Origin: a virus | Taxonomy: Duplodnaviria; Heunggongvirae; Uroviricota; Caudoviricetes | IMG/VR virus record: IMGVR_UViG_3300008111_001118 | Strand: one strand, 5' to 3' | Length of the DNA stretch: 64,000 nucleotides | Part shown: one piece after another, positions 50,014 to 64,000 of the stretch | Position numbering within the stretch: the first letter of the stretch is position 1 | How the letters are laid out: every line of letters begins with the position of its first letter | The notes under the pieces: model-generated | The model's database searches: none | The model's input: the letters and a program-made list of their open reading frames with translations, nothing else | What the model was told of the DNA's origin: nothing | Program-made: the position numbers and the translations under genes

Positions 50014-50097
50014 TGGTGCCCACTGCCGGACTCGAACCGGCACTCCAGAGGAAGCAAATTTTAAGTCTGCCGCGGCTACCAATTTCACCAAGCGGGC
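50014..50097 (-). tRNA. tRNA-Leu(TAA), class II
   Basis: Hand-folded: acceptor GCCCGCT/AGTGGGC, anticodon stem GCAGA/TTTGC with loop CTTAAAA, long variable arm, T-arm CCGG-TTCGAGT-CCGG, encoded CCA. Confidence 0.8.
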
Positions 50098-50100
50098 ATT

Positions 50101-50496
50101 TTATTTTTTATACTTATCACCGGTAACTTGACCGGCACTCATTATAATAACTGGAATACGTTTAATATTCATTTCACGAAATGCAAAGTAACGATGATGT
50201 CCATCAATTACTTGATAAGTGTTTTCTCGTGGAATTCTTCTTACTAGTATTGGAGGTATCTTGCTGATATCTCGTTTTATCTGTTTTTTAATACTGTTTA
50301 TATTTGCTCTAGCATCAACATCTTTAGTATCACCTTTACCGTCTCCTTCGAATCTAGATCGGATCTGATTCATAGGCATTACAACAACTCGGTTGTATTC
50401 GTTTTTAAAATCAGTTACATTGGCACCGACAGTACTGTCACCAGTTTCAGGATCAACGTCTTTGGTTATTTTTGCTACTACTTCAAATATTTTCAT
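50101..50496 (-). CDS. ParB-like nuclease domain protein (about 131 aa from the internal Met MKIFEV)
   Basis: DGHHRYFAF motif of the ParB/sulfiredoxin fold. The ORF as called (to 50553) would overlap tRNA-Leu(CAA), so the internal start is preferred. Confidence 0.5.
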   Translation of the reverse strand: MKIFEVVAKITKDVDPETGDSTVGANVTDFKNEYNRVVVMPMNQIRSRFEGDGKGDTKDVDARANINSIKKQIKRDISKIPPILVRRIPRENTYQVIDGHHRYFAFREMNIKRIPVIIMSAGQVTGDKYKK

Positions 50497-50512
50497 ATAG
50501 TATTTATTATTT

Positions 50513-50595
50513 GGTGCCCCAGGAGGGACTTGAACCCCCACGCCTTGCGGCAAAAGATTTTGAATCTTCCGTGGCTACCATTACACCACTAGGGC
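50513..50595 (-). tRNA. tRNA-Leu(CAA), class II
   Basis: Hand-folded: acceptor GCCCTAG/CTGGGGC, anticodon loop TTCAAAA, long variable arm, T-loop TTCAAGT, CCA encoded. Confidence 0.75.
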
Positions 50596-50820
50596 AAAGT
50601 GTTGTTTAAAGGTGGCATCAGCACTTGTCTAGTACAAATTTATCGGGCCCAGCTGCGTTCAAACAACTATGTGTCTGTTTTTACACCTACGTAAGGACTA
50701 GAATGTTTTTTATCCTTACTCCTTTAAACAATATAGTAATTAGCCTAGCAATAACCTATAGCATATCGCCGGGTCGCGGTCGACTCACTTCCCTTACACC
50801 CCCAAGGTGCAGGCTAAAAT

Positions 50821-50896
50821 TGGTTGCGGTGGGCAGGACTCGAACCTGCGATTTACTGGTTATGAGCCAGTCGAGATGCCGCTTCTCTACCCCGCA
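50821..50896 (-). tRNA. tRNA-Met/Ile2(CAT)
   Basis: D-stem GAGA/TCTC, anticodon stem ACTGG/CCAGT with loop CTCATAA, T-arm GCAGG-TTCGAGT-CCTGC; acceptor has one mismatch. Confidence 0.65.
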
Positions 50897-51397
50897 ATAA
50901 ACTTAACTAGTAGAACAGTCTCGGAAATGGAGTAGTCGCCTACAGCCAAATGGGTCTGTACTCGAAAACTGTTCAACTAGTTAAGTTAAAAGATATGCCA
51001 ATCCTCTTATCACTTTCCACAAACGGTACCGGTTTTTGAACTAACATATCGTTAAACTTAATTTTTGCATAGGCTGAGATTATGCCTTGCTGTAGGAGCC
51101 TTTGACCATTACCGTTAGCCTTGCGAGCCACGTTCTGTCGTTATCCACAAGAGCCTTTTACGGTCATCTTGTATCTCCCAGTGGTGCCTTTTTTGGAGAG
51201 TGGCGTTTCTCTCGTCGCACGTTGCTACTCGTCCTTCTATCCTTCGTCTGCCTTGCGAGCAGTTCACAGTCGCTAAACCGTTACGCTATCTTTCCGAACA
51301 ACTACATCAGCCTTGCGAGCATCCGTAGACCACATTCTCTTGCGAGTGTGGCATTAACCACCTTTCACAACGTACCGGGACAGTCTTTCGCTTTTGT

Positions 51398-51468
51398 TTA
51401 TCAAAGAAGGGATTGAACCTTCGCCGATTCCGTTCAATGGAATTGCTCTACCGCTGAGCTATTTGCGA
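51398..51468 (-). ncRNA. aberrant tRNA-like element (anticodon loop ATTGAAC = UGA anticodon, short variable arm, 2 mismatches in acceptor stem, no CCA)
   Basis: Good D-arm (GCTC-AGCGGTA-GAGC), perfect anticodon stem ATTCC/GGAAT, T-arm GAAGG-TTCAATC-CCTTC, but acceptor TCGCAAA vs TTTGATA pairs only 5/7. Confidence 0.4.
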
Positions 51469-52133
51469 ACCTACTTCGATGTGCTGTCCCAGTTGCTTCA
51501 CGTCTTGTTAGACGCAAAATACAACACACCGACTGTCTTTTGCCTTGCGGGCTACTCAACGTCTTTTTAAGTATCCGGGGCCTAACCCTTCCACTCTCAA
51601 GATGCTAACTTGCCTTTGCTTGCGGGCTCAGACTAGTTAACTACCTGTTAACTTTCAGCATTCGTTAGTTTGGCTGAACAGTGTTTGGGCGCCAACCCTC
51701 TTATCGCTCACCGACCGGCTCTGCGACTATCCTTTCGGACACTATTCCTAACTTACTGCCTACCGCCTTTCTACGGACGGGAGTTGCTTTCGGTACCCGA
51801 GTCAACTCTAGTTCAGGCTTGCTTAGATGGACCATTGCTGGCGCAAGTTTATAGGAAACCTTGCTTTGGGTGCATTACTGCACTTACCCTTACGTGGACG
51901 CTAAGCCGCCCATCTTACTGTGTTTACAACGATATATTGTTTATCTTATCGTCAGTCGATAGACATAGTGGTTAGCATTGCCATTTCAACTTATTGTCAG
52001 TAGCGTGTGGCCCTGTTGTTTCGCTAGGAACCACCCTAGTTACTTGACAGTGCTACTACCCAATATACCTGTGTAAACACAGTGTTTACCAAATTATCAA
52101 AGAGCGTGTAAACAACTTCTTGCTTACTTGTTT

Positions 52134-52162
52134 AATATAGTGCATGTTGCACCAAAGGTCAA
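52134..52162 (-). promoter_or_regulatory. sigma70-like promoter (TTGACC-N17-TATATT) firing leftward into the 1.3-kb ORF-free region
   Basis: Read from the sequence; copy 1 of a duplicated promoter-leader module (see 54979-55008). Confidence 0.55.
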
Positions 52163-52191
52163 CCACTTTTTTATCTTTTTTTATTTTTTTT

Positions 52192-52266
52192 TGGAGCGGG
52201 TAACGGGATTCGAACCCGTGACCTGGTGCTTGGCAAGCAGCCGCTCTACCCCTGAGCTACACCCGC
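52192..52266 (-). tRNA. tRNA-Gly(GCC)
   Basis: Acceptor GCGGGTG/TACCCGC, anticodon loop TTGCCAA, T-arm ACGGG-TTCGAAT-CCCGT, CCA encoded; one C-C mismatch in the anticodon stem. Confidence 0.7.
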
Positions 52267-52313
52267 ATTTTAAGTTTGTAGTGATTATTAAATTCACTAT
52301 GTAGACAATTTAA

Positions 52314-52389
52314 TGGTGCCGGTAGAGAGATTCGAACTCCCCACCTGATGATTACTAATCAACTGCTCTACCAAATGAGCTATACCGGC
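52314..52389 (-). tRNA. tRNA with anticodon loop TTAGTAA (AGT anticodon, nominally Thr; unusual A34)
   Basis: Perfect acceptor GCCGGTA/TACCGGC, D-arm GCTC-ATTTGGTA-GAGC, T-loop TTCGAAT, CCA encoded; one T-T mismatch in the anticodon stem. Confidence 0.6.
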
Positions 52390-53093
52390 AAATTATTATA
52401 AAATGGAATAACCACATTTTCAGCAAATGCTTCGTGTTGTTTTCCTGAAGGATGATCATCTCCCGGTGTAGGAAAGTCGTTGGGCATGTTATCTCTAGAC
52501 CATTCGTAGCAACCCTTAACTGGTACAAATCTTGTCCAGTCTACCATTTCTTTTAAATATTCTGTTTGCATAGTATTGACATTACTCTCATCAAATGTGC
52601 TTTGATTCATATTACTAAAAAAGTATTTTATATTATTTACTTTCAAGTAATTTTGCAATCTTAGAATATTTTCATAGGTTCTGATTAAATCAAATGTGTT
52701 GTTTGTATAAATCTTATAATGATTCGTTGAAAATCGACTAGGAAAACTTGCATTAATCAATACCCATTTGCCTGCAGGATCATTTTTTGGCCACGCTAGG
52801 TGACTGGCTTCGGATATGTTTGGCTTTGATAATTGATTTAATACAAATGAGTTTTCTACATAAAATGATGCTCTGTTGGCAGCACTCCACATAACCCCAA
52901 CTACTATATCTTTCGATTCTACATTGTTTTTGAATAAATCATTAACTTGATAAATTGCACGTCTAGCGATATGCTCATTTCCATTACTGCCCAATCCCAT
53001 TGGGTAATGGGCATATTTCATTTTTTTTGCAAAATGAAAGGGCCAAGTATGATTGTCGTATGTAAATGAGCATCCGCTTGATACAAAGTGCAT
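52380..53093 (-). CDS. hypothetical protein (237 aa) embedded in the tRNA array
   Basis: ORF flanked by tRNAs on both sides; no recognised motif. Confidence 0.5.
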   Translation of the reverse strand: MHFVSSGCSFTYDNHTWPFHFAKKMKYAHYPMGLGSNGNEHIARRAIYQVNDLFKNNVESKDIVVGVMWSAANRASFYVENSFVLNQLSKPNISEASHLAWPKNDPAGKWVLINASFPSRFSTNHYKIYTNNTFDLIRTYENILRLQNYLKVNNIKYFFSNMNQSTFDESNVNTMQTEYLKEMVDWTRFVPVKGCYEWSRDNMPNDFPTPGDDHPSGKQHEAFAENVVIPFYNNLPV

Positions 53094-53185
53094 ATTTTAT
53101 TTATCCCTCATATAGATCTTCGTAATCAATATCGTCATCGTCTTCTAACCAATCGGTATCGGACGAAGTTTGATCAACAGTTTAA

Positions 53186-53262
53186 TGGTCGGAGTGACAG
53201 GATTTGAACCCACGACATCTTGGTCCCAAACCAAGCGCTCTACCAAACTGAGCTACACTCCG
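53186..53262 (-). tRNA. tRNA-Pro(TGG)
   Basis: Acceptor CGGAGTG/CACTCCG, anticodon stem CTTGG/CCAAG with loop TTTGGGA, T-loop TTCAAAT, CCA. Confidence 0.8.
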
Positions 53263-53268
53263 ATATAC

Positions 53269-53344
53269 TGGCTGGGAAGGGTGGATTCGAACCACCAACC
53301 AACGGATTCAAAGTCCGGTACTCTACCAATTGAGCTACTTCCCA
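53269..53344 (-). tRNA. tRNA-Gln(TTG)
   Basis: U1:A72 acceptor TGGGAAG/CTTCCCA (typical of Gln), anticodon loop CTTTGAA, T-arm GGTGG-TTCGAAT-CCACC. Confidence 0.8.
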
Positions 53345-53350
53345 ACATTT

Positions 53351-53432
53351 TGGTGCGGATAGAGGGACTCGAACCCCCACGCTTACGCACTAGTTCCTAA
53401 GACTAGCGTGGCTACCATTACACCATATCCGC
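53351..53432 (-). tRNA. tRNA-Leu(TAG), class II
   Basis: Acceptor GCGGATA/TATCCGC, anticodon stem CTAGT/ACTAG with loop CTTAGGA, long variable arm. Confidence 0.8.
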
Positions 53433-53437
53433 ATTAA

Positions 53438-53513
53438 TGGTGCCCCCAGCAGGACTTGAACCCGCGACCCCCTGATTACAAATCAGGTGCTCTACCAGCT
53501 GAGCTATAAGGGC
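53438..53513 (-). tRNA. tRNA-Thr(TGT)
   Basis: Anticodon stem CCTGA/TCAGG with loop TTTGTAA, T-arm GCGGG-TTCAAGT-CCTGC, CCA. Confidence 0.8.
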
Positions 53514-53523
53514 AAAAACTTTT

Positions 53524-53597
53524 TGGAGCGGGTAACGAGATTCGAACTCGTGACAAGAGCTTGGAAGGCTCGCATGTTACCGCTACACCATACCCGC
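53524..53597 (-). tRNA. tRNA-Gly(TCC)
   Basis: Acceptor GCGGGTA/TACCCGC, anticodon loop CTTCCAA, T-loop TTCGAAT, CCA. Confidence 0.8.
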
Positions 53598-53604
53598 ATT
53601 ATAT

Positions 53605-53680
53605 TGGCGACCTGTACCGGGATCGAACCGGTGTTCTTCTGCGTGACAGGCAGACGTATTAACCACTTTACCAACAGGCC
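53605..53680 (-). tRNA. tRNA-Asp(GTC)
   Basis: Anticodon stem TCTGC/GCAGA with loop CTGTCAC, G73 discriminator, T-loop TTCGATC, CCA. Confidence 0.8.
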
Positions 53681-53870
53681 AAAAGCATCACACACGGCTT
53701 ACAAGTTCCGTCCCACCACTATGTGAAAGGTGTGATGCAACACTGTATACTACGCCGTTCCAAACCAACATCTAGTGTTGATATGCTATTTAAAGCCACG
53801 CACTGCTATTTCAAACAGTTACTCACGATGCTATGCTTACGCTACTAGGAGGTTCACAGTGTGTTTATTA

Positions 53871-53958
53871 TGGCGGAAGCGGTGAGATTCGAACTCACGG
53901 TACCTTGCGGTACGCTGGTTTTCAAGACCAGAGCCATCAACCACTCGGCCACACTTCC
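53871..53958 (-). tRNA. tRNA-Ser(TGA), class II
   Basis: Acceptor GGAAGTG/CGCTTCC, anticodon stem CTGGT/ACCAG with loop CTTGAAA, long variable arm, CCA. Confidence 0.8.
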
Positions 53959-53965
53959 GTATATT

Positions 53966-54041
53966 TGGCACAGGAGCAAGGACTTGAACCCTGGACATTC
54001 GGTTTTGGAGACCGACGCTCTACCAACTGAGCTACACCTGC
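53966..54041 (-). tRNA. tRNA-Trp(CCA)
   Basis: Anticodon stem TCGGT/ACCGA with loop CTCCAAA; acceptor with one mismatch and one G-U. Confidence 0.7.
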
Positions 54042-54047
54042 ATATAT

Positions 54048-54122
54048 TGGTGCGGAATGAGAGGGTCGAACTCCCGACAACCTCGGTGTAAACGAGGGGC
54101 TCTACCACTGAGCTAATTCCGC
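54048..54122 (-). tRNA. tRNA-Val(TAC)
   Basis: Acceptor GCGGAAT/ATTCCGC, anticodon stem CCTCG/CGAGG with loop TTTACAC, CCA. Confidence 0.8.
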
Positions 54123-54345
54123 ATATCACTGTTTACCGCGTGACTAGAAAACTTGCCATCAAAGCGGGATTTGTTAATTGCTTGTTAATCTCTGGGCTTC
54201 CCCGTTAATCTTCAAGTTCTTAACTGGTCTCGGACTGCAACTTTGATACCGTGTTTACTGATTGTGCAGTACTGTTCAAGTTAAACAACTTACACAATGT
54301 TCAACGCGGCTTTTCTAGCCCCTCGGAAAACAGTGATTATATTAA

Positions 54346-54421
54346 TGGTGGACCCTGCCGGGATCGAACCGGCGACATTATGCTTGCAAAGCATACGCTC
54401 TCCCAACTGAGCTAAGAGCCC
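54346..54421 (-). tRNA. tRNA-Ala(TGC)
   Basis: G3:U70 Ala identity pair present, anticodon stem TATGC/GCATA with loop TTTGCAA, CCA. Confidence 0.8.
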
Positions 54422-54427
54422 GTATAT

Positions 54428-54515
54428 TGGCGGAGCGTCTGGGAGTCGAACCCAGTCTACCCTTGCGGGTAGTGCAGATTAGCAATCTGGTGCCTTACCG
54501 TCCGGCCCACGCTCC
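54428..54515 (-). tRNA. tRNA-Ser(GCT), class II
   Basis: Acceptor GGAGCGT/ACGCTCC, anticodon loop TTGCTAA, long variable arm, CCA. Confidence 0.7.
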
Positions 54516-54522
54516 GTATATT

Positions 54523-54598
54523 TGGCTCCTCGTGCTGGGCTCGAACCAGCGACACTTTGATTAACAGTCAAATACTCTACCAACTGAGCTAACGAGGA
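54523..54598 (-). tRNA. tRNA-Asn(GTT)
   Basis: Acceptor TCCTCGT/ACGAGGA, anticodon stem TTTGA/TCAAA with loop CTGTTAA, CCA. Confidence 0.8.
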
Positions 54599-54978
54599 AC
54601 ACTAACTCTACTTACAGCTACACAGAAACTTAGCATAACGACCTCCGGACGGCCCTCTGCGAGTATATCTGTGTATGTGTAAATAAACTCTACTTACAAC
54701 TGCTAACGTGTAGGATTTGCACCTACAAGCGGACCGCCGTCCTATTTGCTACACCGCGTAGTTAAGCTGACTCGAACAGCACACCGCAACCCAACGGACC
54801 ACGGACTCGAACCGTGTTTACTTCTATTCATTAGCATGTGTAAGTAGAGTCATTCTCTACTTACCCCACAATTATCGACTTTCGTCTATGTAGGTGTTGT
54901 TTGAAGTTTCTAAACGAAACAAAACAACTGATCTAAATTTTCAAAGAGCGTGTAACTTGCGTTACTGTTTGTTTAGTT

Positions 54979-55008
54979 AACATAGCGTATATTTTTTACT
55001 GTGTCAAC
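54979..55008 (-). promoter_or_regulatory. sigma70-like promoter (TTGACA-N18-TATGTT) for the 13-tRNA operon and its structured leader
   Basis: Read from the sequence; copy 2 of the duplicated promoter-leader module; downstream leader shares UACACGCUCUUUGA with copy 1. Confidence 0.5.
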
Positions 55009-55119
55009 TGTTTTTTTCTTTTTTATTTTCGGAGCATCTAAACTGTTGTTCTTTGCGTCCTATGTATGTGTTATATAGTGTGTGCCTGTACTTGTCAACC
55101 GTCTTTTTGAACTACTAAT

Positions 55120-55152
55120 GAAAAAACCCTCCCAGTTTTGCTAGGAGGGTTT
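55120..55152 (-). terminator. strong bidirectional rho-independent terminator
   Basis: AAAAAACCCTCC-cagttttgcta-GGAGGGTTTT; on the minus strand the stem is followed by UUUUUU. Confidence 0.7.
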
Positions 55153-55329
55153 TGAAACTTTGCGAACTCGGTTTGTTCTTAGTCTCGTACCCCTCCAGAG
55201 CATAGGTCAACGCCTGGATTACTTGATCCGGCTGTCCATAACTGCACTGTTGTGGTCGAGAGTTTCATTGAACTTCTTTGTCCTTTGTTGTATTATATTT
55301 ATCTCTTTGAGACAAAAACTCAAATTTGG

Positions 55330-55713
55330 TTAACGCTTGTCTAGAGACTTTTGTACCAGTTGTTGATAGATAGCATGTAACACATCACTGTTGTCTTTGA
55401 TTTCATCTTTGTTTTGATAATCAACTAATTGGCGTTCTGCTAAGATATGTGTTGTATATTGGTACGGAAAACTTTTATCAGAATCTTCGCCCCAGTAACT
55501 GTGTTTATCTGCTTCGTTCAACAGGACATGTGCAGAAGCATAAATGCCGTCTTTACTGATGTCATATGCTATAGCAATATCACCAGTTGCTGATCCTGTT
55601 ATTTTTTTCTTTCTTCCTAAGACACCAATTGCAACACTTACGTTGTGCAGATTTTCTGACTCAACTGTGTTGTGGTCGTATGTAAAAGCGTAAAGTTTAA
55701 TATTTGCAGGCAT
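55330..55713 (-). CDS. hypothetical protein (127 aa)
   Basis: ORF. Confidence 0.45.
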   Translation of the reverse strand: MPANIKLYAFTYDHNTVESENLHNVSVAIGVLGRKKKITGSATGDIAIAYDISKDGIYASAHVLLNEADKHSYWGEDSDKSFPYQYTTHILAERQLVDYQNKDEIKDNSDVLHAIYQQLVQKSLDKR

Positions 55714-55768
55714 AGTGTTCCCCTTTAAACTACTTATCCAAGTAAGTCAACAATATTAATAAATTTGA

Positions 55769-56149
55769 TCAACTATAGTTGTAGTGGAAAGAACCAGTCC
55801 AATGAAATCCTGGAGGATTATCATTGCCTTCTGGATCAGTGAGTTTGTAAAGTACTTCTGGTACAAATTTTCCAGCACGGTCAAAAAACTCTACACGATC
55901 TAGTACCTCTGCGCCCATAGCATAATAGTCTCCAAAGTGTTCTTTGAACTCGTTAAGGGCACGTTCCTCCGGTGTGTTTTTAGTAGTTTTGTCAAATTGC
56001 CAACGCCCGTTTTCGTCAATATAACTCTTGTTTACATAGTCGTCCTGACGCGGGCTAGCACGAGTCACCATTGTCATTACAGTGCGACCTTCACCAGTAG
56101 CACCATAATCACAGAGTACGTATACGTTTGGATCTGTTTTTTCTTGCAT
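55769..56149 (-). CDS. hypothetical protein (126 aa)
   Basis: ORF. Confidence 0.45.
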   Translation of the reverse strand: MQEKTDPNVYVLCDYGATGEGRTVMTMVTRASPRQDDYVNKSYIDENGRWQFDKTTKNTPEERALNEFKEHFGDYYAMGAEVLDRVEFFDRAGKFVPEVLYKLTDPEGNDNPPGFHWTGSFHYNYS

Positions 56150-56150
56150 G

Positions 56151-56480
56151 TTATCCTCCAGTAGATGATCCTGTGCTTGGATTGTCGAAGTGTTGTACGC
56201 TGGTTAGTTTGGTTTTCCAATAGCCAAAGCCTGTGCCGGTTGTGCCATCGTCCCAGGTTTCTAGGGCATAGTAGTGTTCTAGCCAAACAGTGTGTCCGTC
56301 GTTTAGTTCAGTAGGACAAAATGCAAAGTACTTTACTACACGTCTGTCGCCTGTTTTTTGTTTGTCAGTTTTCCAACGCATCATCTTCATCCAATGTAAC
56401 CCATTTGGTTTCTTCATAGTAAGACATAAAGAAAGTATCGTTGTGATCAGGTTTTCCGTAAACCATAATCGCAGGGCCAT
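56151..56480 (-). CDS. hypothetical protein (109 aa)
   Basis: ORF; overlaps the next ORF, start uncertain. Confidence 0.35.
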   Translation of the reverse strand: MALRLWFTENLITTILSLCLTMKKPNGLHWMKMMRWKTDKQKTGDRRVVKYFAFCPTELNDGHTVWLEHYYALETWDDGTTGTGFGYWKTKLTSVQHFDNPSTGSSTGG

Positions 56481-56631
56481 CTGTATCTTCAGTAAGCCAG
56501 ATGTGATGGAAGATTAGGTCACTGGGCTGATCCAATTCTTCTGTTAGATGAGCAAGTTCTTGAGCGATCTTTTTACGCTGATTTTCTGTGAACTCAGGGT
56601 GTTCACTTTCCCATTCAATGTTGTGTGTCAT
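56365..56631 (-). CDS. hypothetical protein (88 aa)
   Basis: ORF. Confidence 0.35.
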   Translation of the reverse strand: MTHNIEWESEHPEFTENQRKKIAQELAHLTEELDQPSDLIFHHIWLTEDTDGPAIMVYGKPDHNDTFFMSYYEETKWVTLDEDDALEN

Positions 56632-56954
56632 TGTGAATTCTCTGCGGCTTCCATAATAAAGTCAATTGCATCGTTGATTACAAACTCGTTAAAGATGCCG
56701 TGATAGTTGTTCCAAATCTCAGCAGCAACCCAGTCCCATACTACAGCACCATCTTTCATGTAATGTGCTTGATTTTTACCAATAGTGCTGATAATCCAAA
56801 CTGCAAGACGGTGTACGTTTTCAAAATCACTCATTGATATTCTCCACAGTGTGTTCTCCAATTTCAATACGCACAATCTGATCAGGTGCATACCAAGTTT
56901 TATCAATTGTAATGCCTTTAGTAGCACGTTTGTCAAGCCACTCTCGAACGTCAT
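56628..56954 (-). CDS. hypothetical protein (108 aa)
   Basis: ORF. Confidence 0.35.
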   Translation of the reverse strand: MTFESGLTNVLLKALQLIKLGMHLIRLCVLKLENTLWRISMSDFENVHRLAVWIISTIGKNQAHYMKDGAVVWDWVAAEIWNNYHGIFNEFVINDAIDFIMEAAENSQ

Positions 56955-57156
56955 CTTCGAGATGAACTCGCATCATAAAATTGCCAAAACTCGCATCATC
57001 AAATTCGATAACGCGATTAAACGGCGTGTCCACGCCTTTGATGTAAATACGGAAGTTTTGTGTATAACGACGCAGTGGATCAGTTTCGTAACGTTTCTGA
57101 TCCTCAGTACGAGGATCCCACATCCATTTCAAAGTATCAAGCAGTTTCATCAGCAT
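56827..57156 (-). CDS. hypothetical protein (109 aa), first gene after a sigma70-like promoter
   Basis: TTGACA-N16-TATATT at 57175-57202 (minus) upstream. Confidence 0.4.
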   Translation of the reverse strand: MLMKLLDTLKWMWDPRTEDQKRYETDPLRRYTQNFRIYIKGVDTPFNRVIEFDDASFGNFMMRVHLEDDVREWLDKRATKGITIDKTWYAPDQIVRIEIGEHTVENINE

Positions 57157-57261
57157 TGCTCCTTGTATGTGTTTAATATACAGTATTTGTGTTAGTTGTC
57201 AATTAGATTAAAACGTGTAAGAACAAACATTTGCAATTTTGTTCTACAACCGGTCAAGAGA

Positions 57262-57288
57262 AAAGGGCCCTAAGGCCCTGATCTTTTT
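57262..57288 (-). terminator. rho-independent terminator (AGGGCC-ttag-GGCCCT plus U-run) fused to a TTGAC -35-like element
   Basis: Same GTCAAGAGAAAAGG-hairpin architecture as at 49966-50003. Confidence 0.5.
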
Positions 57289-58699
57289 ATTGCTTTACAG
57301 GAGTAGCAGCAACAGTTGGATCCACTTGCAGATCTTTGGCAGTCTTGATCATCAACATCTGCATAAAAGTATCTACAGTGCCCAGTGCATTACCTGCCGT
57401 TCCACCTTCGCCGCCAATCACAGTGGCAGGAACATTGATCTTGCTGGCAGCGTCTGCCCAAACTTTTTGTGCTTCTGTCCATGCAGCCAGTTTTTGTGCA
57501 AGAGCACCGTCAGCAAGTAGAATTGCTTCTTTGGCGTAGGCTTCAGCATCGGCAGCAACAGTTACGGCTTCGGCATCGATTCGCGCTCGGTCTAGATTGA
57601 TTGCAGCCGTTTGCTTGGCAATTTCTGCTTCTTCACGAACACGTTCTGCTTCAATCAGTGCCAATTTCTTGGTAGTTTCGGCATTAGTGGTCTTTTCAAT
57701 TTGCTCAACTTTTGCTTCTGCTTGACGCTTGGCAATATCAGTTTCACCTTGTTGGATAGCAAGCAAACGCTGTTCTTCCTGTTCAAGACGCTGTTCACGT
57801 GCTACAACTCGACGACTTGCTGCCTTCTTACGCTCGCCAATTTGACGTTCATATTCGTCATCAGGATCAATGTTTTCAAGAATAGCACTTGCTACAGTAA
57901 CACCAATTTCAGTAAAGTCGTGCGGTGTGCGAACATCATTACCAGCAGTGTCTGTAATTTTTTCCATCAACACTTTACGAACTTCAGTATCGCCTACGTC
58001 GCTGGTATCCTGTGCTACATCACTGTCACTAGCAGCAGCACGACTACGAATCACACCACCTGCTTGGTTAAGACTGATTTGACGAACTTGGGCACGACCT
58101 TTTTCAATTGCATCTTTGAATTCGCTCTTAAACTGGTCACGCTTACCGCCGCTGTAGTATTCTTCCATGGTAAACATGTTAGACACACTGTCAAGACTTG
58201 CAGTAACAGCAGGCTTTAGAGTAGTGTTAATCAGACGCTCGGGTGTACGGAAGGTACGTGCCATTTCAAGAAACTGTGCAGAGTCTTGCGGAATACCAAA
58301 GCGAGTAGTTTGAGTTACATCACCGGTCCAGTTGTCTGCTAGACGAACACGGTAGGGCTCTGCAATCGAACCTTGGAACACAGTGCCTGCATTTTCACCA
58401 GTTGCATCAAGAGTATGTGCTACAGTAATGTAATGCGGCCACGCAGTGCTAGTACCCCATCCTGCAAAATACCAACCGGTTTCGCAAGTTGAAGTTTCGT
58501 TACCAAAAATAGTTCGAGTGTGCTGGCAAAAACCAGCGTCGTTATAACCAACAGATCCGCCAAGGCTAAACACACCAGCCAAAGCAAACATTACAACAGA
58601 TCCAAGCGTTTTTACTTTGCGTAGCATAGGATCGACTGGAACAAACAGAACTGCAAAAGCACCAAGCAAGAACAGAACTCCAACAAAAATACCGAACAT
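57287..58699 (-). CDS. membrane protein (470 aa) with two N-terminal TM helices, SPFH/band-7-like region and long coiled coil
   Basis: Hydrophobic N-terminus, Ala/Glu/Gln-rich heptad region (REQRLEQEEQRLLAIQQ...); HflK/stomatin-like organisation. Confidence 0.4.
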   Translation of the reverse strand: MFGIFVGVLFLLGAFAVLFVPVDPMLRKVKTLGSVVMFALAGVFSLGGSVGYNDAGFCQHTRTIFGNETSTCETGWYFAGWGTSTAWPHYITVAHTLDATGENAGTVFQGSIAEPYRVRLADNWTGDVTQTTRFGIPQDSAQFLEMARTFRTPERLINTTLKPAVTASLDSVSNMFTMEEYYSGGKRDQFKSEFKDAIEKGRAQVRQISLNQAGGVIRSRAAASDSDVAQDTSDVGDTEVRKVLMEKITDTAGNDVRTPHDFTEIGVTVASAILENIDPDDEYERQIGERKKAASRRVVAREQRLEQEEQRLLAIQQGETDIAKRQAEAKVEQIEKTTNAETTKKLALIEAERVREEAEIAKQTAAINLDRARIDAEAVTVAADAEAYAKEAILLADGALAQKLAAWTEAQKVWADAASKINVPATVIGGEGGTAGNALGTVDTFMQMLMIKTAKDLQVDPTVAATPVKQ

Positions 58700-58735
58700 G
58701 TATATCTCCTTTTGTTACGGTGTCGTTTAAGTGTT

Positions 58736-58899
58736 TTATGTATACTTTAGTTTCTTCTTGAAGTCAAGAAGTTTTTGTTGATATTTGTCATAGTTGTCGA
58801 TATGATCTTGAACAGCATTTTCAACAACTCGGCAAACAACATAGATGCCACCAAACAGTGCAATGTTAGGCAACACATACCATAGAACGATTTCCAGCA
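58736..58899 (-). CDS. small membrane protein (54 aa; below the ORF-track cutoff)
   Basis: Manual translation MLEIVLWYVLPNIALFGGIYVVCRVV... with one TM helix. Confidence 0.3.
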
Positions 58900-58900
58900 T

Positions 58901-59449
58901 TTACTTAATCCTCAATTCTTCAATGTTAACGGGCGTGTAGTCAACGGCTTCTACACTCATATTGCGATATGGTCCTTCTGGACTAGGGTTTTGATGGATA
59001 TGTCCGTGGACATTAAGGAATGTCTTTTGAACTGTTCCTACATCACCTTCTGCAACAAAAACCCGTAAGTTGCTAGGATGAACAGGAACGTGTGTTAGTA
59101 GCAAGCCAAATTCAGAGAACATACGCCACATGTGAACTTTGGAGAAGAATCCGCCGCTGCTCAAATACTTGATGTCATCGTGATTGCCCACAATCAGCCG
59201 CTTTTGGCCATGCAGTTTAGGCCACAACTTTTGAAAGTATTCACGGTCGCCAAACATCACGTCACCCAAGTGATATACTTTGTCACCGGGTTTCACACGG
59301 CTGTTCCACTGTTCAACCATGTAGTCATCCATTTCCTTTACAGAGGAGAATCTAGCACCACGGACGAGTTTGCCAGTGGTGCTGTCTGTAAACGTTAGAA
59401 TATTTGCGTGATTGAAGTGTGTATCACTGATTACCCAAATATCACTCAT
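58901..59449 (-). CDS. calcineurin-like metallophosphoesterase (Ser/Thr phosphatase / phosphodiesterase family)
   Basis: ISDTHFNH, GDVMFGD, GNHD and HGHIH metal-binding motifs in canonical order. Confidence 0.7.
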   Translation of the reverse strand: MSDIWVISDTHFNHANILTFTDSTTGKLVRGARFSSVKEMDDYMVEQWNSRVKPGDKVYHLGDVMFGDREYFQKLWPKLHGQKRLIVGNHDDIKYLSSGGFFSKVHMWRMFSEFGLLLTHVPVHPSNLRVFVAEGDVGTVQKTFLNVHGHIHQNPSPEGPYRNMSVEAVDYTPVNIEELRIK

Positions 59450-59450
59450 G

Positions 59451-59939
59451 TTAATCTCCTTTTAGTTTGAACACACCAAGTACCAGTCTGCTTTCCGGTT
59501 GACGAATACCAGCACGAACTACCATTTCGTTGTTTTCGTTGTAGCGAATCAACCAGTTCAAGTAGTCAGTGCTCCACAGAGGAATGTTGGTAATACGCTG
59601 CAACATATCCTTAGGATAGTCATGCATTGCATATTGATCACCCAGATACTTTTTGTTCTTAAGATAAAAGAAAGTTTTTCTACGCTCAAAGTAATCTTTG
59701 GTAAGAGGCTTGAATGAGATCTCGTAATCTTTGCGAATGTCAGCAGGCAACTTTTTAATAGCACTCTCACGAATGATATAGTGCTTCTTGAGTTTGCCTT
59801 TGGCACGGCTTTTGAGATCACTCTTATGAGTCTGTTGCTGTTGATAGGTTAACATAGCAAACTCCTTTCTAATAAAATCTGCTTCTAGTTTCTCGTATTC
59901 TTCTTCTAGCATACTTTCGATATCTTTAAATGTCAACAT
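59451..59939 (-). CDS. hypothetical protein (162 aa)
   Basis: ORF. Confidence 0.45.
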   Translation of the reverse strand: MLTFKDIESMLEEEYEKLEADFIRKEFAMLTYQQQQTHKSDLKSRAKGKLKKHYIIRESAIKKLPADIRKDYEISFKPLTKDYFERRKTFFYLKNKKYLGDQYAMHDYPKDMLQRITNIPLWSTDYLNWLIRYNENNEMVVRAGIRQPESRLVLGVFKLKGD

Positions 59940-60612
59940 CTTTGTACTTTCCTTCTCGACTCCATTCGTCTAATACATCTGCAATTTCTAACATTGCTGC
60001 GGCTACTGCATGATTATCACCCCAATAACTGTAAACGTGAATGTTAATTCCCATAAGTATACCTCTCTATGATTCAACATACAACTCAATCACAGTTCTG
60101 TCAAGTCAGAACTTGCCTTAAATCCATTTTGAATTATTATAGTGTGATCAACGTAGTTGATCAGTTAAGTCTTTCGCAGGCTCAATCCTTAACATATTAT
60201 TCTTTTAGAGAGATTCTATCTAGATTTGGATTCACACTTAGCCTTCTTACAGGCTAAGGCAAGTAAGACTCTATCTGAGTTCTTTCATCACACTCATATT
60301 CAAAAACCTACTGTGTAAGGAAAAGGCGGTTGTGCTGTACCTTTTTACTTTGTGCTTAATTACAACGCGGATTCGCAAAACAATAATATGAGCAATTGTT
60401 TTGCTGTCTGTAGGTTCCAAACGTCAGGAGAGCCTACTCATTTTCTCCAGTCACGGAGACACGAATTACGGACTTACAAGGCGTGCGAGAACCACGCCAG
60501 GAACACCACCAGATCCAACCGCATCTGCGGGCTCAAGGTGACCTTACGGCTAAACTGTGCTGTATATAGCCTTTGCTTGCCTAGTTGTGCCTAATACTAA
60601 GACCGGACAATC

Positions 60613-60975
60613 TTAGTCGTTTCTTTTTGCCTTACAACGGTTGATGTATTCTTCTGCTTCATCTTTTGTATAGAACCAATGTTCTAGATGATGTTCGTCC
60701 TCGCCCGCCCACTCATCATAGATCTGTCCATCTGGATAGCGGAAATGGTATTCGGTGATACGATCTTCATCAAAACGAACATCGCCTTCTTCGATGTGTG
60801 TTACCTTGCCGCAATATTCGATAACGATGATGTTATATTCCCAATGATCTCGATCATACCGAAACCATTCAACACCATCAATTACAGTTTTGATTTTATT
60901 TTTTGTAAATGCATTGTTTTTTTCGTCGGCAATATAAACTTTATCGCCAAACTTTAAAGTGTTAAATTTGATCAT
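60613..60975 (-). CDS. hypothetical acidic protein (120 aa)
   Basis: ORF. Confidence 0.45.
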   Translation of the reverse strand: MIKFNTLKFGDKVYIADEKNNAFTKNKIKTVIDGVEWFRYDRDHWEYNIIVIEYCGKVTHIEEGDVRFDEDRITEYHFRYPDGQIYDEWAGEDEHHLEHWFYTKDEAEEYINRCKAKRND

Positions 60976-60986
60976 TTTAACTCCTA

Positions 60987-61400
60987 CTACTTTGTTTCCT
61001 TGGCAATCATTTTGTATCCGTTTCCTGTTGGATGTACACCGTCCTTGCTCATTGGATATGCCCTAGTATCTACGACACTGTCACCAAACTGTTTAGCAAT
61101 GACAAGTGCAGCATACCTAGATTCTTCGTTGTTTGCACTGAGAATCCAAATAACGTCACCCGAGATAAGTTCACGCAAGGCCAGCATTGGCCCATAGGAC
61201 TCTACGTAGCCATCATTGGAACCTAGACTAATAATGGTCTTTTTGGATTCAGTTAACACAAAATGTCTATACAAGCCGTTGGCATAATCCTCGGAATTGA
61301 TACCCGATTTAGCCTGCACAACACATTCTGGCCGCATCTGGCCGATGCCAACTGCAATACTATCGCCTAAAATCAAACATTCAATCATTGTTATCTCCAA
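60987..61400 (-). CDS. minimal SGNH/GDSL-type hydrolase (137 aa)
   Basis: Block I LILGDSIAVG, block III LGSNDG, block V DGVHPT. Confidence 0.55.
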   Translation of the reverse strand: MEITMIECLILGDSIAVGIGQMRPECVVQAKSGINSEDYANGLYRHFVLTESKKTIISLGSNDGYVESYGPMLALRELISGDVIWILSANNEESRYAALVIAKQFGDSVVDTRAYPMSKDGVHPTGNGYKMIAKETK

Positions 61401-61728
61401 TTAAATTAGACTCTTTGACCGTCTTAAATCGTTCATGATATTCTCGGTCATCAAACGTTTTCTTGTATTGCTCTGCACCAAGGTTGATCAAGTATTCAAC
61501 GTGAGCAAGATCACAGTTGGCAGAGGGTTCCTTCAAGTAAGCCAAGTTCCAGCCGTGCCGGTGAACGCAACGACCATAGTAGAGAGCATACCCGTCGCCA
61601 TGCAGTTCGATGGTGTATTGCGGTTCACAAGCACAAGGCTTCAACAGTGTTTCCCAGTCAGTCATAGCATTACTCCTAATACGATTCCAAAAGCAAACAC
61701 AAGACCTATAGCACTGATCACATACCAA
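61381..61728 (-). CDS. hypothetical Cys/His-rich protein (115 aa)
   Basis: ORF. Confidence 0.4.
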   Translation of the reverse strand: MVCDQCYRSCVCFWNRIRSNAMTDWETLLKPCACEPQYTIELHGDGYALYYGRCVHRHGWNLAYLKEPSANCDLAHVEYLINLGAEQYKKTFDDREYHERFKTVKESNLIGDNND

Positions 61729-61791
61729 AATGCTGGACCTAAAATCATACCAGCAGCATAGAAAACAAAGTAAGGAAACTCAATAATTTTT

Positions 61792-62214
61792 TTAATCATG
61801 GTCATAAGCCTTCAAAAAGTTTTCCATATACTTGCGAATGTTCTCTGCTCCTACGGGATTCATACTATGAACATGATATCCAAATCCCACAGGCAACCGT
61901 AGTTTGTTATCCATCACATGGTCACAAAACCATTTGGCAAAGGTGTAGCCAGTTTTCTCGCCTGTGTCTTTTTCGTAATGTTCGTCTGCCAAGTCATGGT
62001 CAAAACTGATCATAGTGGGCAAGCCATACTTTTCCACACACCAAACAGCATCATCCATGCTGCGGCAGATCACTACGTTTTTGTAAGGTCCGTAGTTGTA
62101 ACGCACATCACCGGGGAAGCGAATGTCATCTAAAAACAGTGTCCAGGTCATTTTACATTCCCATCCAAGCAGCACATTCATCCCAACGAACGTTGGTAGT
62201 GATTGACTTTTCAA
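61792..62214 (-). CDS. hypothetical protein (140 aa)
   Basis: ORF. Confidence 0.45.
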   Translation of the reverse strand: MKSQSLPTFVGMNVLLGWECKMTWTLFLDDIRFPGDVRYNYGPYKNVVICRSMDDAVWCVEKYGLPTMISFDHDLADEHYEKDTGEKTGYTFAKWFCDHVMDNKLRLPVGFGYHVHSMNPVGAENIRKYMENFLKAYDHD

Positions 62215-63307
62215 TGTGATCCAATATCATAGCACGACCGTCACGATCACCAAAACGACCAAACACATACACAGCCGCAAACGGATCGCGGTTCTTGATC
62301 GTAGGCATCCACTCCTGTGCATAACGCTTGCGATCAAGTCCTGACGCAACAACAGTGTTCCAGTAACGATCATACTTTTCCACAGTGTTGTGCAAACGTT
62401 CTGCAAATCTGCGTTCAAAGTCACGCACACGATCTGCCTGCACTTTAGGCAACATAGGAACAACATCATCAACTTCTTCGTTGAGGATCAAGTTCACAAT
62501 GTTACGATCAAACACAATACGATCCACAGTCTTGTGAATACGCACGTACCAGTCGTTCTTGATTTTGCACATGTGACCATCTGCAAAGCGGATGATGTCG
62601 CCTTCACGACCTTCTGCACCACGCTGACGAGCAATGTAGTCAACAAGATTGCCTGCTACACTACCATACTGCGTAACAGTGTTGAACGGACAAGAGATAT
62701 CCATTGCATATTCGCCAGTCAAGTTGTCACGAGTACCAAGATACACAAGGTCTGCTGCCTCATAAGCCAGCACAATCTGGTTAAATGGGCTTACCCACTC
62801 AAACAGCGGAGTTAATCCAAGATCAACCATAGTGCGAAGCCATTCCTTCAATCTGCGGTCCTGAGCAGCAAGCCACGCCTCGGCATCCATAGCAACCGAC
62901 GTCACTCCCATTTTGGTAGCCAGTCGCAGGTGCCCATCAACCAAGATCGGACGGATCATACTACCATCCATCTTTTCCATGATTACATGAGGCTGCGACA
63001 TGTCCACAGTATGAGTTTGAGTCTCTTCACGCTCGTTCACGTTGAAGAACTTGTGGAACGGACGGCTCATAAGAGCACCATCAGGACCAAAGATAAGACC
63101 ACGGCATTCACGACGAATCGCACCGCCCAAGTCGTCTGGGCCAGTCATGTCAAAGGTATCGGCCATAGCCACCACATAGTTGACCACAGTATAGCCTTCA
63201 CGTTCGGCTACGACAAATTCGTCACGGCCTTCTACGTGCGGCAGCACATCACTGATGTGACGGATCAGAGGAAAACGGTAGTTCATGATTTTATCCTTGT
63301 GTATCAC
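62153..63307 (-). CDS. rnlA: RNA ligase 1 (T4 RnlA-like; tRNA repair)
   Basis: ECRGLIF, RPFHKFFNVNE, lysine-adenylylation motif EKMDGSMI (KxDG), NQIVLAYE and KIKNDWYVRIH blocks align in order with T4 Rnl1. Confidence 0.8.
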   Translation of the reverse strand: MIHKDKIMNYRFPLIRHISDVLPHVEGRDEFVVAEREGYTVVNYVVAMADTFDMTGPDDLGGAIRRECRGLIFGPDGALMSRPFHKFFNVNEREETQTHTVDMSQPHVIMEKMDGSMIRPILVDGHLRLATKMGVTSVAMDAEAWLAAQDRRLKEWLRTMVDLGLTPLFEWVSPFNQIVLAYEAADLVYLGTRDNLTGEYAMDISCPFNTVTQYGSVAGNLVDYIARQRGAEGREGDIIRFADGHMCKIKNDWYVRIHKTVDRIVFDRNIVNLILNEEVDDVVPMLPKVQADRVRDFERRFAERLHNTVEKYDRYWNTVVASGLDRKRYAQEWMPTIKNRDPFAAVYVFGRFGDRDGRAMILDHIEKSITTNVRWDECAAWMGM

Positions 63308-63342
63308 CTACCCTAGTGTTATAGCACAAGGATAGGCAGTTG

Positions 63343-63861
63343 TCAATCACTGATTCTGTTGCCATACATGTCGTAGCAGCGAACAGCATCGAATCCTTCG
63401 TCAACAGTAGGGCGAACAAAACTATCCATCATTGATTCAATTACATGATCAGGAATAGTTTTGCCTGGACGGCTAGCCATACGGTGCTGCCAATCTTCCC
63501 ACTGGCTATCACCCGCTGGCAAGAGGATGCACTCGCACTCAACACGATAGCCAGCGTTACGCATACGATTAATGATCTTACGACGCTTGCCAACACCAAG
63601 GTTGGTCTGATCCCAGATGACATCCTTACGAAGAGTAACTATCGAGTTCAACTTCCGTTCGTTGAACTCCGTCGCAGCCTTAATGTTTAAAGAAAACGCC
63701 TCGTTATAAGTGATGCCGTTGTCTTCAGCAACCGTATCGATATACATATCGGTGCTGTAGATCCAAGTGTCTTCAGAGATCATTCTCTGAATGAGAGTGC
63801 TCTTACCGGTAGCGGGTAGACCGACCATCACAGTACAAGTAGGCATGTTTTCTCCAATCAA
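63343..63861 (-). CDS. polynucleotide 5'-kinase (T4 Pnk kinase domain only; no phosphatase domain)
   Basis: P-loop VMVGLPATGKST, VIWDQTNLGVGKRRKI and IPDHVIESM align with the T4 Pnk kinase domain; the protein ends after about 172 aa. Confidence 0.6.
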   Translation of the reverse strand: MIGENMPTCTVMVGLPATGKSTLIQRMISEDTWIYSTDMYIDTVAEDNGITYNEAFSLNIKAATEFNERKLNSIVTLRKDVIWDQTNLGVGKRRKIINRMRNAGYRVECECILLPAGDSQWEDWQHRMASRPGKTIPDHVIESMMDSFVRPTVDEGFDAVRCYDMYGNRISD

Positions 63862-63871
63862 TACTTAAAGT

Positions 63872-64000
63872 TTCCCATCGCTTCGTTATCTTTGAAACCA
63901 GCCATATATGCTTCGATTTCATCGGATGTCATGCGATCTTCAGGAACTAATTCGCTGGTTCCAGTGCCACCAACGTAGTAGTGAGGAACACATGGACGAC
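63872..64000 (-). CDS. C-terminal fragment of a gene extending beyond the right edge (function unknown)
   Basis: Manual translation ...VPHYYVGGTGTSELVPEDRMTSDEIEAYMAGFKDNEAMGNFKY* ending at the TGA (63869-63871). Confidence 0.4.

Follow-up and report, generated by a model that had tools for sequence, protein, structure and literature searches.

The right-hand end of the 64,000-nucleotide (nt) stretch of viral DNA analysed here (IMG/VR record IMGVR_UViG_3300008111_001118, Caudoviricetes; hereafter the window), together with the sequence immediately beyond its edge, very probably encodes a complete T4-type RNA heal-and-seal module in which the end-healing enzyme is split into separate genes. 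The full gene order, in the direction of transcription, comprises a stand-alone 3'-phosphatase of the HAD_PNKP family (located outside the window), two small open reading frames (ORFs) of 63 and 69 amino acids (aa), a stand-alone P-loop kinase, an RNA ligase 1 (Rnl1), and a protein of the family named "cyclic-phosphate processing receiver domain" (cREC), all co-directional. A preliminary description of the window had recognized a T4-style tRNA/RNA heal-and-seal module, a reading that the Rnl1 and polynucleotide kinase (Pnk)-type assignments given below support, and both ORFs are present on the minus strand within 62153–63861, where they had been placed. They are also adjacent, as described, although the kinase gene is transcribed before that of Rnl1 and not after it. 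Since the phosphatase half of Pnk was not seen, that description went on to propose a rewired pathway; this part is not borne out, because a stand-alone HAD_PNKP gene is found in contigs 100% identical to the window. The "missing phosphatase" is thus an artefact of the window edge, and the module is an ordinary, already catalogued split variant, its type being known from published neighbourhoods of Rnl1, cREC, and a kinase and from cultured phages that share the split.

A split polynucleotide kinase

The kinase ORF, taken at its maximal length from a TTG start (63343–63861), encodes the 172 aa given in the preliminary description; the likely start, however, is the ATG at 63846, which follows a GGAG and yields a protein of 167 aa (63846–63343, minus strand), in agreement with the gene calls on public contigs. 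The protein matches the P-loop family PF13671 (AAA_33; E 5e-17) and aligns pairwise by BLASTP with residues 1–143 only of T4 Pnk (25% identity, E 4e-6). A profile built from 19 family members aligns with T4 Pnk residues 3–173 (hhalign probability 97.4%, E 1.5e-11), and the PHROG family phrog_505, "polynucleotide kinase", is matched at positions 1–142 of its 295 (E 1.3e-11). Such pairwise and profile comparisons were required to show the relationship to T4, because T4 Pnk is absent from the matches with E ≤ 1 in a phmmer search of the PDB with the single kinase sequence, the best of which is the mammalian PNKP kinase domain (E 0.009). Searched with the family profile, the PDB returns the tRNA(Sec) kinase PSTK, mammalian PNKP, the stand-alone RNA kinase of Mucorales, T4 Pnk (1LY1), and the kinase domains of Capnocytophaga Pnkp1 and Clostridium thermocellum Pnkp. 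In the P-loop, GLPATGKST, K15 and S16 are conserved, as are D33 (T4 D35), D79 (T4 D85), and the lid residues R122 and R126. Taken together, the alignments identify the protein as the predicted 5'-kinase half of a split T4-type Pnk. The earlier view that this P-loop kinase lacks the HAD half agrees with the extent of the T4 alignment, and the argument that 3'-end healing must reside on another polypeptide holds for a kinase devoid of a phosphatase domain.

That other polypeptide is encoded just outside the window. Among the window's ORFs of at least 40 aa, a profile search gave no HAD_PNKP match with E ≤ 10, and a motif scan gave no DxDGT. A look-up of the kinase and of Rnl1 as exact proteins in public assemblies gave 20 and 23 contigs, respectively. 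Two of the contigs are 100% identical to the window, namely L003 (JGI Ga0315909_10002133) over window positions 53343–64000 (10,658 bp) and L004 (NCBI JAVQHP010074959) over 54187–64000 (9,814 bp), and two others, L006 and L009, are 99.95% and 99.8% identical. All contigs reaching far enough past the edge (L003, L004, L005, L006, L009, and L012) carry a stand-alone HAD_PNKP gene, in the common order HAD_PNKP (149–153 aa), 63-aa ORF, 69-aa ORF, kinase, Rnl1, and cREC; the sole exception to this order is L012, where the 69-aa ORF is uncalled and the kinase is called at only 109 aa. The gene at L003 9041–9490 corresponds to 64357–64806 in window numbering (minus strand), which puts 510 nt between it and the kinase ATG, makes the kinase the third gene downstream of it, and leaves about 357 nt between it and the right edge. 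The preliminary description had named two observations that would speak against its proposal, a separate HAD-family Pnk phosphatase gene and a metallophosphoesterase inactive on 2',3'-cyclic phosphate RNA ends, and the former is what we found.

The 149-aa HAD protein matches PF25109 (E 3e-31) and the phosphatase domain of T4 Pnk (E 1.8e-12 for 5UJ0 and 1.6e-11 for residues 162–300 of 1LTQ). Its D6 and D8, within the motif FDIDGT, correspond to the nucleophile/acid pair D165/D167 of T4 Pnk, and the blocks HR, SGR, DDIVK, and DDR align within T4 residues 162–300 as the equivalents of R176, S211/R213, D254, K258, and D277/D278; judged from these residues, the protein looks catalytically competent. 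In phrog_505 it covers positions 163–294, so that kinase and HAD protein tile the family and together represent a split Pnk. PHROGs also holds a HAD-only family labelled "polynucleotide kinase" (phrog_415), and stand-alone structures have been solved for both the kinase domain (1LY1) and the phosphatase domain (5UJ0) of the T4 enzyme. The T4 phosphatase domain by itself converts RNA 2',3'-cyclic phosphate (RNA>p) to RNA-OH (Das & Shuman, PMC3592404). As this domain suffices for the conversion, the encoded chemistry is complete without the calcineurin-like metallophosphoesterase (MPE; 58901–59449), which had been named as one candidate for supplying the step in trans.

The other candidate in the preliminary description, the partial gene at the right edge (64000–63858, minus strand), consists of the last 46 codons and the stop codon of a small ORF that crosses the window edge. 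It is complete in L003 (9780–9989), where it encodes the 69-aa protein; this protein has no Pfam or PHROG match, and a role of the edge gene as the phosphatase is ruled out.

RNA ligase 1

The maximal Rnl1 ORF (62153–63307) begins with GTG; translation probably starts from the ATG at position 63286, preceded by AAGGA, to give a protein of 377 aa (63286–62153, minus strand), as in the gene calls on public contigs. In a phmmer search, residues 66–340 match the structures of T4 Rnl1 (2C5U and 5TT6) with E 6e-28. The blocks CRG, KFFNxNE, KxDGS, FEWV, EG, and KIKxDWY are in register with 2C5U, and in nucleotidyltransferase motif I the sequence EKMDGS is aligned with TKEDGS of T4, which contains the adenylylated lysine, K99. 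The protein further matches PF09511 with 91.6 bits (cutoff 28.3; E 8.6e-26) and, over nearly its full length, phrog_562 (E 2.6e-71); the phrog_562 and TIGR02308 alignments reach residues 372–373. The alignment with 2C5U and these two family matches confirm the T4-like Rnl1 that had been recognized from EKMDGSMI and further aligned blocks. Its identity as a T4-type RNA ligase 1, the predicted sealing enzyme, is considered secure, though as a divergent member, a term chosen because the family cutoffs discussed below are missed.

In some relatives the Rnl1 gene is found in two ORFs (L051 10001–11951, L050 1108–3052, and L054 3–2021), one of 196 aa with motifs I/III and one of 192 aa with motifs IV/V. 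The insert between the halves, about 0.8–0.9 kb long, contains a reverse-strand ORF of 221 aa with a GIY-YIG-like N-terminus. By its sequence this ORF looks like a free-standing homing endonuclease that interrupts the ligase gene in relatives, and it is absent from the window.

cREC

Abutting Rnl1 is a component that the preliminary description overlooked, the 119-aa cREC protein (62151–61792, minus strand), whose ATG lies 1 nt past the Rnl1 stop codon. Its product matches PF20274 (E 1.8e-20; 73.8 bits, cutoff 27) and phrog_1479 (E 7.6e-26). The family is widespread, a query with this protein having given 836 clusters at the 90% identity level, each one labelled hypothetical. Invariant in 33 homologues are D8, D9, D51-H52-D53, T67, and H95-S96-x-N98. 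The AlphaFold model (predicted local distance difference test, pLDDT, 82.9; predicted template modelling score, pTM, 0.79) has response-regulator receiver domains as its top fold matches in the PDB (E 2.8e-4, TM-scores 0.45–0.55), whereas the family profile has no meaningful sequence match there; the modelled fold is receiver-like but divergent. The annotated neighbourhoods of cREC list no histidine kinase.

The family was defined by the Aravind group, whose predicted function for it is the opening of 2',3'-cyclic phosphates or ADP-ribose (ADPr)-derived cyclic phosphates and who noted operonic links to RNA ligases (PMC7824862, PMC9503650). Equally predicted targets are ADP-ribose-1'',2''-cyclic phosphate or cyclic-nucleotide signals. 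By its describers' own statement cREC is experimentally uncharacterised (PMC9503650); in the literature searched, the family is named in two papers only, and later ones were not found.

A second cREC gene occurs in L006 (2004–2360), as well as in L028 (7101–7457) and L032 (3025–3381). The L006 copy is 36% identical to the first and lies immediately upstream of the HAD gene, overlapping it, in a contig 99.95% identical to the window; it adjoins genes for an alternative oxidase (PF01786) and a cytochrome c, both of which are missing from L003 and L004. In L015 (6165–7511), L016 (11131–12471), L017 (11146–13247), and L023 (11176–13439), an extra 1.3–2.3 kb separates Rnl1 from cREC, in place of the 1 nt in the window.

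Conservation of the gene neighbourhood

Searching IMG/VR with Rnl1 yielded 44 related loci (36–95% identity), in whose flanks the partner genes were sought with family hidden Markov models for kinase, HAD, and cREC and with tblastn for MPE. The kinase was present in 28 of the 44 loci (171–189 aa), HAD in 27 (147–159 aa), and cREC and the phrog_547 MPE in 12 each, always on the Rnl1 strand. Kinase and HAD were fused in none of the related loci, being always separate stop-to-stop ORFs. This linkage is directly observed, as is the conservation of catalytic residues, and the analysis likewise shows which genes make up the set and that the set is complete. Order and spacing are varied, as exemplified by MPE-HAD-kinase-Rnl1 in L030, kinase-MPE-Rnl1 in L024, and kinase ... 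cREC-HAD ... Rnl1 in L019, and the survival of the clustering through such shuffling points to functional coupling and not just to inherited synteny. In L006, L019–L021, L028, L032, and Ochrobactrum phage vB_OspM_OC (phage OC), cREC overlaps or abuts HAD; its translation is coupled with that of either the ligase or the phosphatase. Large environmental phages of one clade keep the two Pnk activities stably on separate genes that are clustered with Rnl1. An origin of the split by simple fission of a T4-type pseT gene is not favoured, since the order, phosphatase then kinase, reverses that of T4 and varies among the relatives.

Proposed mechanism and alternative explanations

In the mechanism that we propose, tRNA would first be cut by an anticodon nuclease of the host, or by some other metal-independent RNase, with 2',3'-cyclic-phosphate and 5'-OH ends as the result; the stand-alone DxDxT HAD phosphatase would convert RNA>p to 3'-OH in the manner of the C-terminal domain of T4 Pnk, possibly after cREC has opened the cyclic phosphate. 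The stand-alone kinase would then phosphorylate the 5'-OH, and Rnl1 would seal the break. Besides host tRNAs, the phage's own tRNAs may serve as substrates; ARAGORN finds 18 genes for these at 50014–54598 (minus strand), one more than the 17 counted in the preliminary description.

Several points weigh against this reading or temper it. The activities of all module proteins are predicted from sequence, and the presence of HAD in this exact genome follows from identical overlapping contigs, the gene being outside the window itself. Rnl1 falls below the NCBIfam equivalog cutoff (TIGR02308, 152.7 versus 242.25), and its C-terminal domain, PF20819 (residues 262–372, E 5.4e-5), scores 23.9 bits where the cutoff is 27; the all-helical C-terminal domain of Rnl1 is the determinant of tRNA specificity. 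The kinase profile is about equally close to PSTK, mammalian PNKP, and T4 Pnk. The position of T4 R38, an essential arginine of T4 Pnk that contacts the 5'-terminal nucleotide, is occupied by I36 in the kinase and by Ile or Leu across the 19 family members, and substrate binding by an enzyme with no equivalent of R38 may differ from that of T4 Pnk. Finally, more divergent Rnl1 relatives, at about 52% identity (L040–L046, L055, and L057), have no kinase, HAD, or cREC within 10 kb, which restricts the linkage to one clade.

Healing of the 3' end could instead be ascribed to MPE (59449–58901, minus strand; 182 aa), on the premise that HAD is absent and that this enzyme substitutes for it on 2',3'-cyclic-phosphate/3'-phosphate ends, as in C. 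thermocellum Pnkp (CthPnkp). It matches PF00149 (E 3e-8) and phrog_547 (E 1e-47), and the full set of five metallophosphoesterase motifs, DTH, GD, GNHD, H (in THV), and GHIH, is readable within its 182 aa. Moreover, its phrog_547 homologues adjoin or separate the kinase, HAD, and Rnl1 genes in L024, L027, L030, L031, L036, and phage OC, and calcineurin-like phosphoesterases are occasional members of such neighbourhoods (PMC9503650, PMC7824862). With a HAD_PNKP gene three genes upstream of the kinase, however, there is no gap to fill, and the relatives that carry MPE usually have HAD too. In addition, MPE is not fused to the kinase in the window and stands at a distance of 2.7 kb and six ORFs from cREC; its only solved sequence relative is an uncharacterised Aquifex protein (aq_1665, 1XM7) and neither CthPnkp nor lambda phosphatase, a PDB search giving no detectable sequence match between MPE and the CthPnkp phosphatase. 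We regard substitution by MPE as very unlikely, and its role as a necessary replacement phosphatase is ruled out by the presence of HAD_PNKP. What stands of the earlier proposal of MPE as a healer in trans is an accessory role in end processing, which is plausible in view of its recurrence in the neighbourhoods of relatives.

Two further explanations turn on cREC. Healing might proceed in two steps, with cREC opening RNA>p and HAD removing only the resulting monoester, while MPE may be redundant; this would refine the split-Pnk module favoured here and not replace it. The position of the cREC ATG next to the Rnl1 stop codon, the overlap or abutment of cREC and HAD in the contigs listed above and in phage OC, the invariant acidic pocket residues, and the receiver-like modelled fold are all in line with such a division of labour, which corresponds to the published prediction (PMC7824862, PMC9503650). 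On the other hand, the ability of the T4 HAD domain to take RNA>p to RNA-OH alone (PMC3592404) makes cREC chemically dispensable, only 12 of the 44 related loci contain it, and its activity is a prediction, for which ADP-ribose-1'',2''-cyclic phosphate or cyclic-nucleotide signals are equally predicted targets; we hold the two-step scheme to be a tentative possibility, somewhat more doubtful than probable. Far less probable is a locus with no part in tRNA repair, in which cREC, with the kinase or the phosphoesterases, would degrade cyclic-nucleotide or ADPr-derived immune signals of the host and, jointly, Rnl1 would act mainly as a tail-fibre attachment factor like T4 gp63. The label of phrog_562, "RNA ligase and tail fiber protein attachment catalyst", and the predicted processing of cyclic ADPr derivatives by cREC (PMC7824862, PMC9503650) would fit such functions; yet the catalytic motifs of the ligase are all conserved, no sirtuin, macro, Nudix, KptA, or 2H protein is on record in the window or the 10 kb upstream of the kinase, and a close, recurring association of Rnl1 with kinase and HAD proteins of Pnk type marks the locus as one that heals and seals ends.

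Within the heal-and-seal module, a genuine shift in the chemistry of 3' ends might lie behind the permanent split of Pnk and the tight coupling of cREC to Rnl1 or HAD. On this view cREC would be a new metal-independent RNA 2',3'-cyclic phosphodiesterase on a receiver fold, passing the phosphomonoester on to HAD or MPE, an idea that we consider unlikely: if it were true, the phage might mend ends, or resist nucleases, with which T4 Pnkp copes badly, and the cREC family would have its first demonstrated enzymatic function. The compact four-gene cluster would in any case be a convenient system for testing the predicted activity of cREC on cyclic phosphates. The significance of the module itself is modest, as it opens no long-standing question and would not surprise an RNA-repair specialist.

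Comparison with known systems

Among the closest known systems is the pair of T4 Pnkp (pseT) and Rnl1 (gene 63), in which a P-loop 5'-kinase is likewise combined with a HAD 3'-phosphatase/cyclic phosphodiesterase of the DxDxT type and with an Rnl1, whose C-terminal domain has a putative, sub-threshold counterpart in the window ligase. The catalytic residues of the T4 enzymes align with those of the window proteins and the off-window HAD. In T4, however, the two healing activities form one polypeptide with the kinase N-terminal and the phosphatase C-terminal, whereas here they are two polypeptides (167 and 149 aa), with the phosphatase gene first and two small ORFs between; the equivalent of R38, as noted, is also missing from the window kinase. 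Furthermore, pseT and gene 63 are not adjacent in T4, whereas all three genes are clustered in the window phage, with cREC added.

The same gene set as in the window module has been described for the cREC RNA-repair neighbourhoods, which comprise a T4-like tRNA ligase, cREC, a nucleotide kinase, MazG, and in some cases a calcineurin-like phosphoesterase (Iyer et al. 2021, PMC7824862; Iyer et al. 2022, PMC9503650). The cluster of the window phage differs from both accounts in also containing a Pnk-type HAD phosphatase, and from the neighbourhood centred on sirtuin and MazG (PMC9503650) in that no sirtuin is on record among the annotated genes of the window and the 10 kb upstream. In the precomputed Pfam annotations of that same region, macro, Nudix, 2H, KptA, and RtcB are absent as well, and the sole MazG gene lies ~37 kb from the module.

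Two phages in culture, both from alphaproteobacterial hosts, share the split; the window phage, by contrast, is known from metagenomes only. In the unrelated Ochrobactrum phage vB_OspM_OC (phiOC_p105–p110) the order is HAD-cREC-Rnl1-kinase-hypothetical-MPE (phrog_547), the 147-aa HAD being annotated as "polynucleotide kinase" and cREC as "response regulator"; Roseobacter phage DSS3P8 encodes HAD (gp099), Rnl1 (gp105), and an AAA kinase (gp106). In both, Rnl1 is flanked by a separate HAD (147–183 aa) and an AAA-type kinase (171–176 aa), but the proteins are only 34–44% identical to those described here and the gene order is another one.

A free-standing heal-and-seal kinase of ~170 aa is also part of the split Trl1 system of Mucorales (PMC11571804), whose RazKIN (9D8A) matches the kinase profile with E 2.6e-9. 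That system, however, serves eukaryotic tRNA splicing and uses a 2H-type cyclic phosphodiesterase that leaves a 2'-phosphate, a GTP-specific kinase, and a ligase of another class. With C. thermocellum Pnkp, which combines a kinase, a calcineurin-like phosphoesterase, and a ligase, the module shares a P-loop Pnk kinase of the same clade (4GP7, E 7e-4) and a metallophosphoesterase in the vicinity; in the window phage, by contrast, MPE is neither fused nor adjacent to the kinase, a HAD phosphatase is present, and the Hen1 partner is absent.

Genome setting and possible regulatory elements

The minus strand is the coding strand for the whole 57–64 kb end of the window. In transcription order, cREC is followed by several small ORFs, by MPE, and then by a gene for a Band-7 protein. 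Among these small ORFs, one of 137 aa (60987–61400, minus strand) has weak, sub-threshold similarity to GDSL/SGNH hydrolases (E 0.0017) and is 86–96% conserved near cREC in L015, L017, L023, L028, and L032.

A megablast search of window 58700–64000 against 50,697 phage records gave zero matches; a close relative in culture is thus lacking. By its clamp loader the window phage is nearest (59%) to the Pseudomonas jumbo phage PA5oct group, and related IMG/VR contigs extend to 330–382 kb. Precomputed Pfam matches in the window include T4-like baseplate proteins, ClpB/ClpP, DnaJ, ThyA, DHFR, PhoH, MazG, and an ATP-dependent DNA ligase. Near ClpP, at about 44.8–45.1 kb of the window (L058 9524–9817), lies a gene for a 97-aa protein with a WYL_2 domain (PF10902); WYL domains are treated in the cited cREC literature as sensors for cyclic-phosphate or cyclic-nucleotide ligands.

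Off the window, the region just upstream of HAD (L003 7423–8507) contains two further genes. One encodes another metallophosphoesterase, of 216 aa (phrog_1649, E 8e-34), and the other a PTH2-like protein of 124 aa (phrog_1866) that scores 22.9 bits against the peptidyl-tRNA hydrolase family PF01981, whose cutoff is 23. The two genes accompany HAD in L024, L035, and L049 as well, and they may be further tRNA-related accessory genes.

Two near-consensus sigma-70-like promoters are found upstream, at L003 8075–8115 and 8511–8538 (TTGACA-N17/16-TATATT, 11/12 matches), and no terminator-like site occurs between HAD and cREC. A perfect palindrome of 14 bp, with a T-run behind it (ACCTACACTAGCAG...GTGTAGGT), overlaps with the first promoter. 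The 56-nt spacer between kinase and Rnl1 (63287–63342, minus strand) contains a hairpin, GCCUAUCCUUGUG...CAC.UAGGGUAGG, of -19.6 kcal/mol (z -2.35; 2 of 200 shuffled sequences fold equally well). A second arm of 10 nt in the spacer, CACAAGGAUA, overlaps the ribosome-binding site of Rnl1 and is complementary to UAUCCUUGUG. The spacer could be an element of translational control or of RNA processing. The CCTAC/GTAGG theme of the promoter palindrome recurs in this spacer, and the recurrence may represent a repeated regulatory element.

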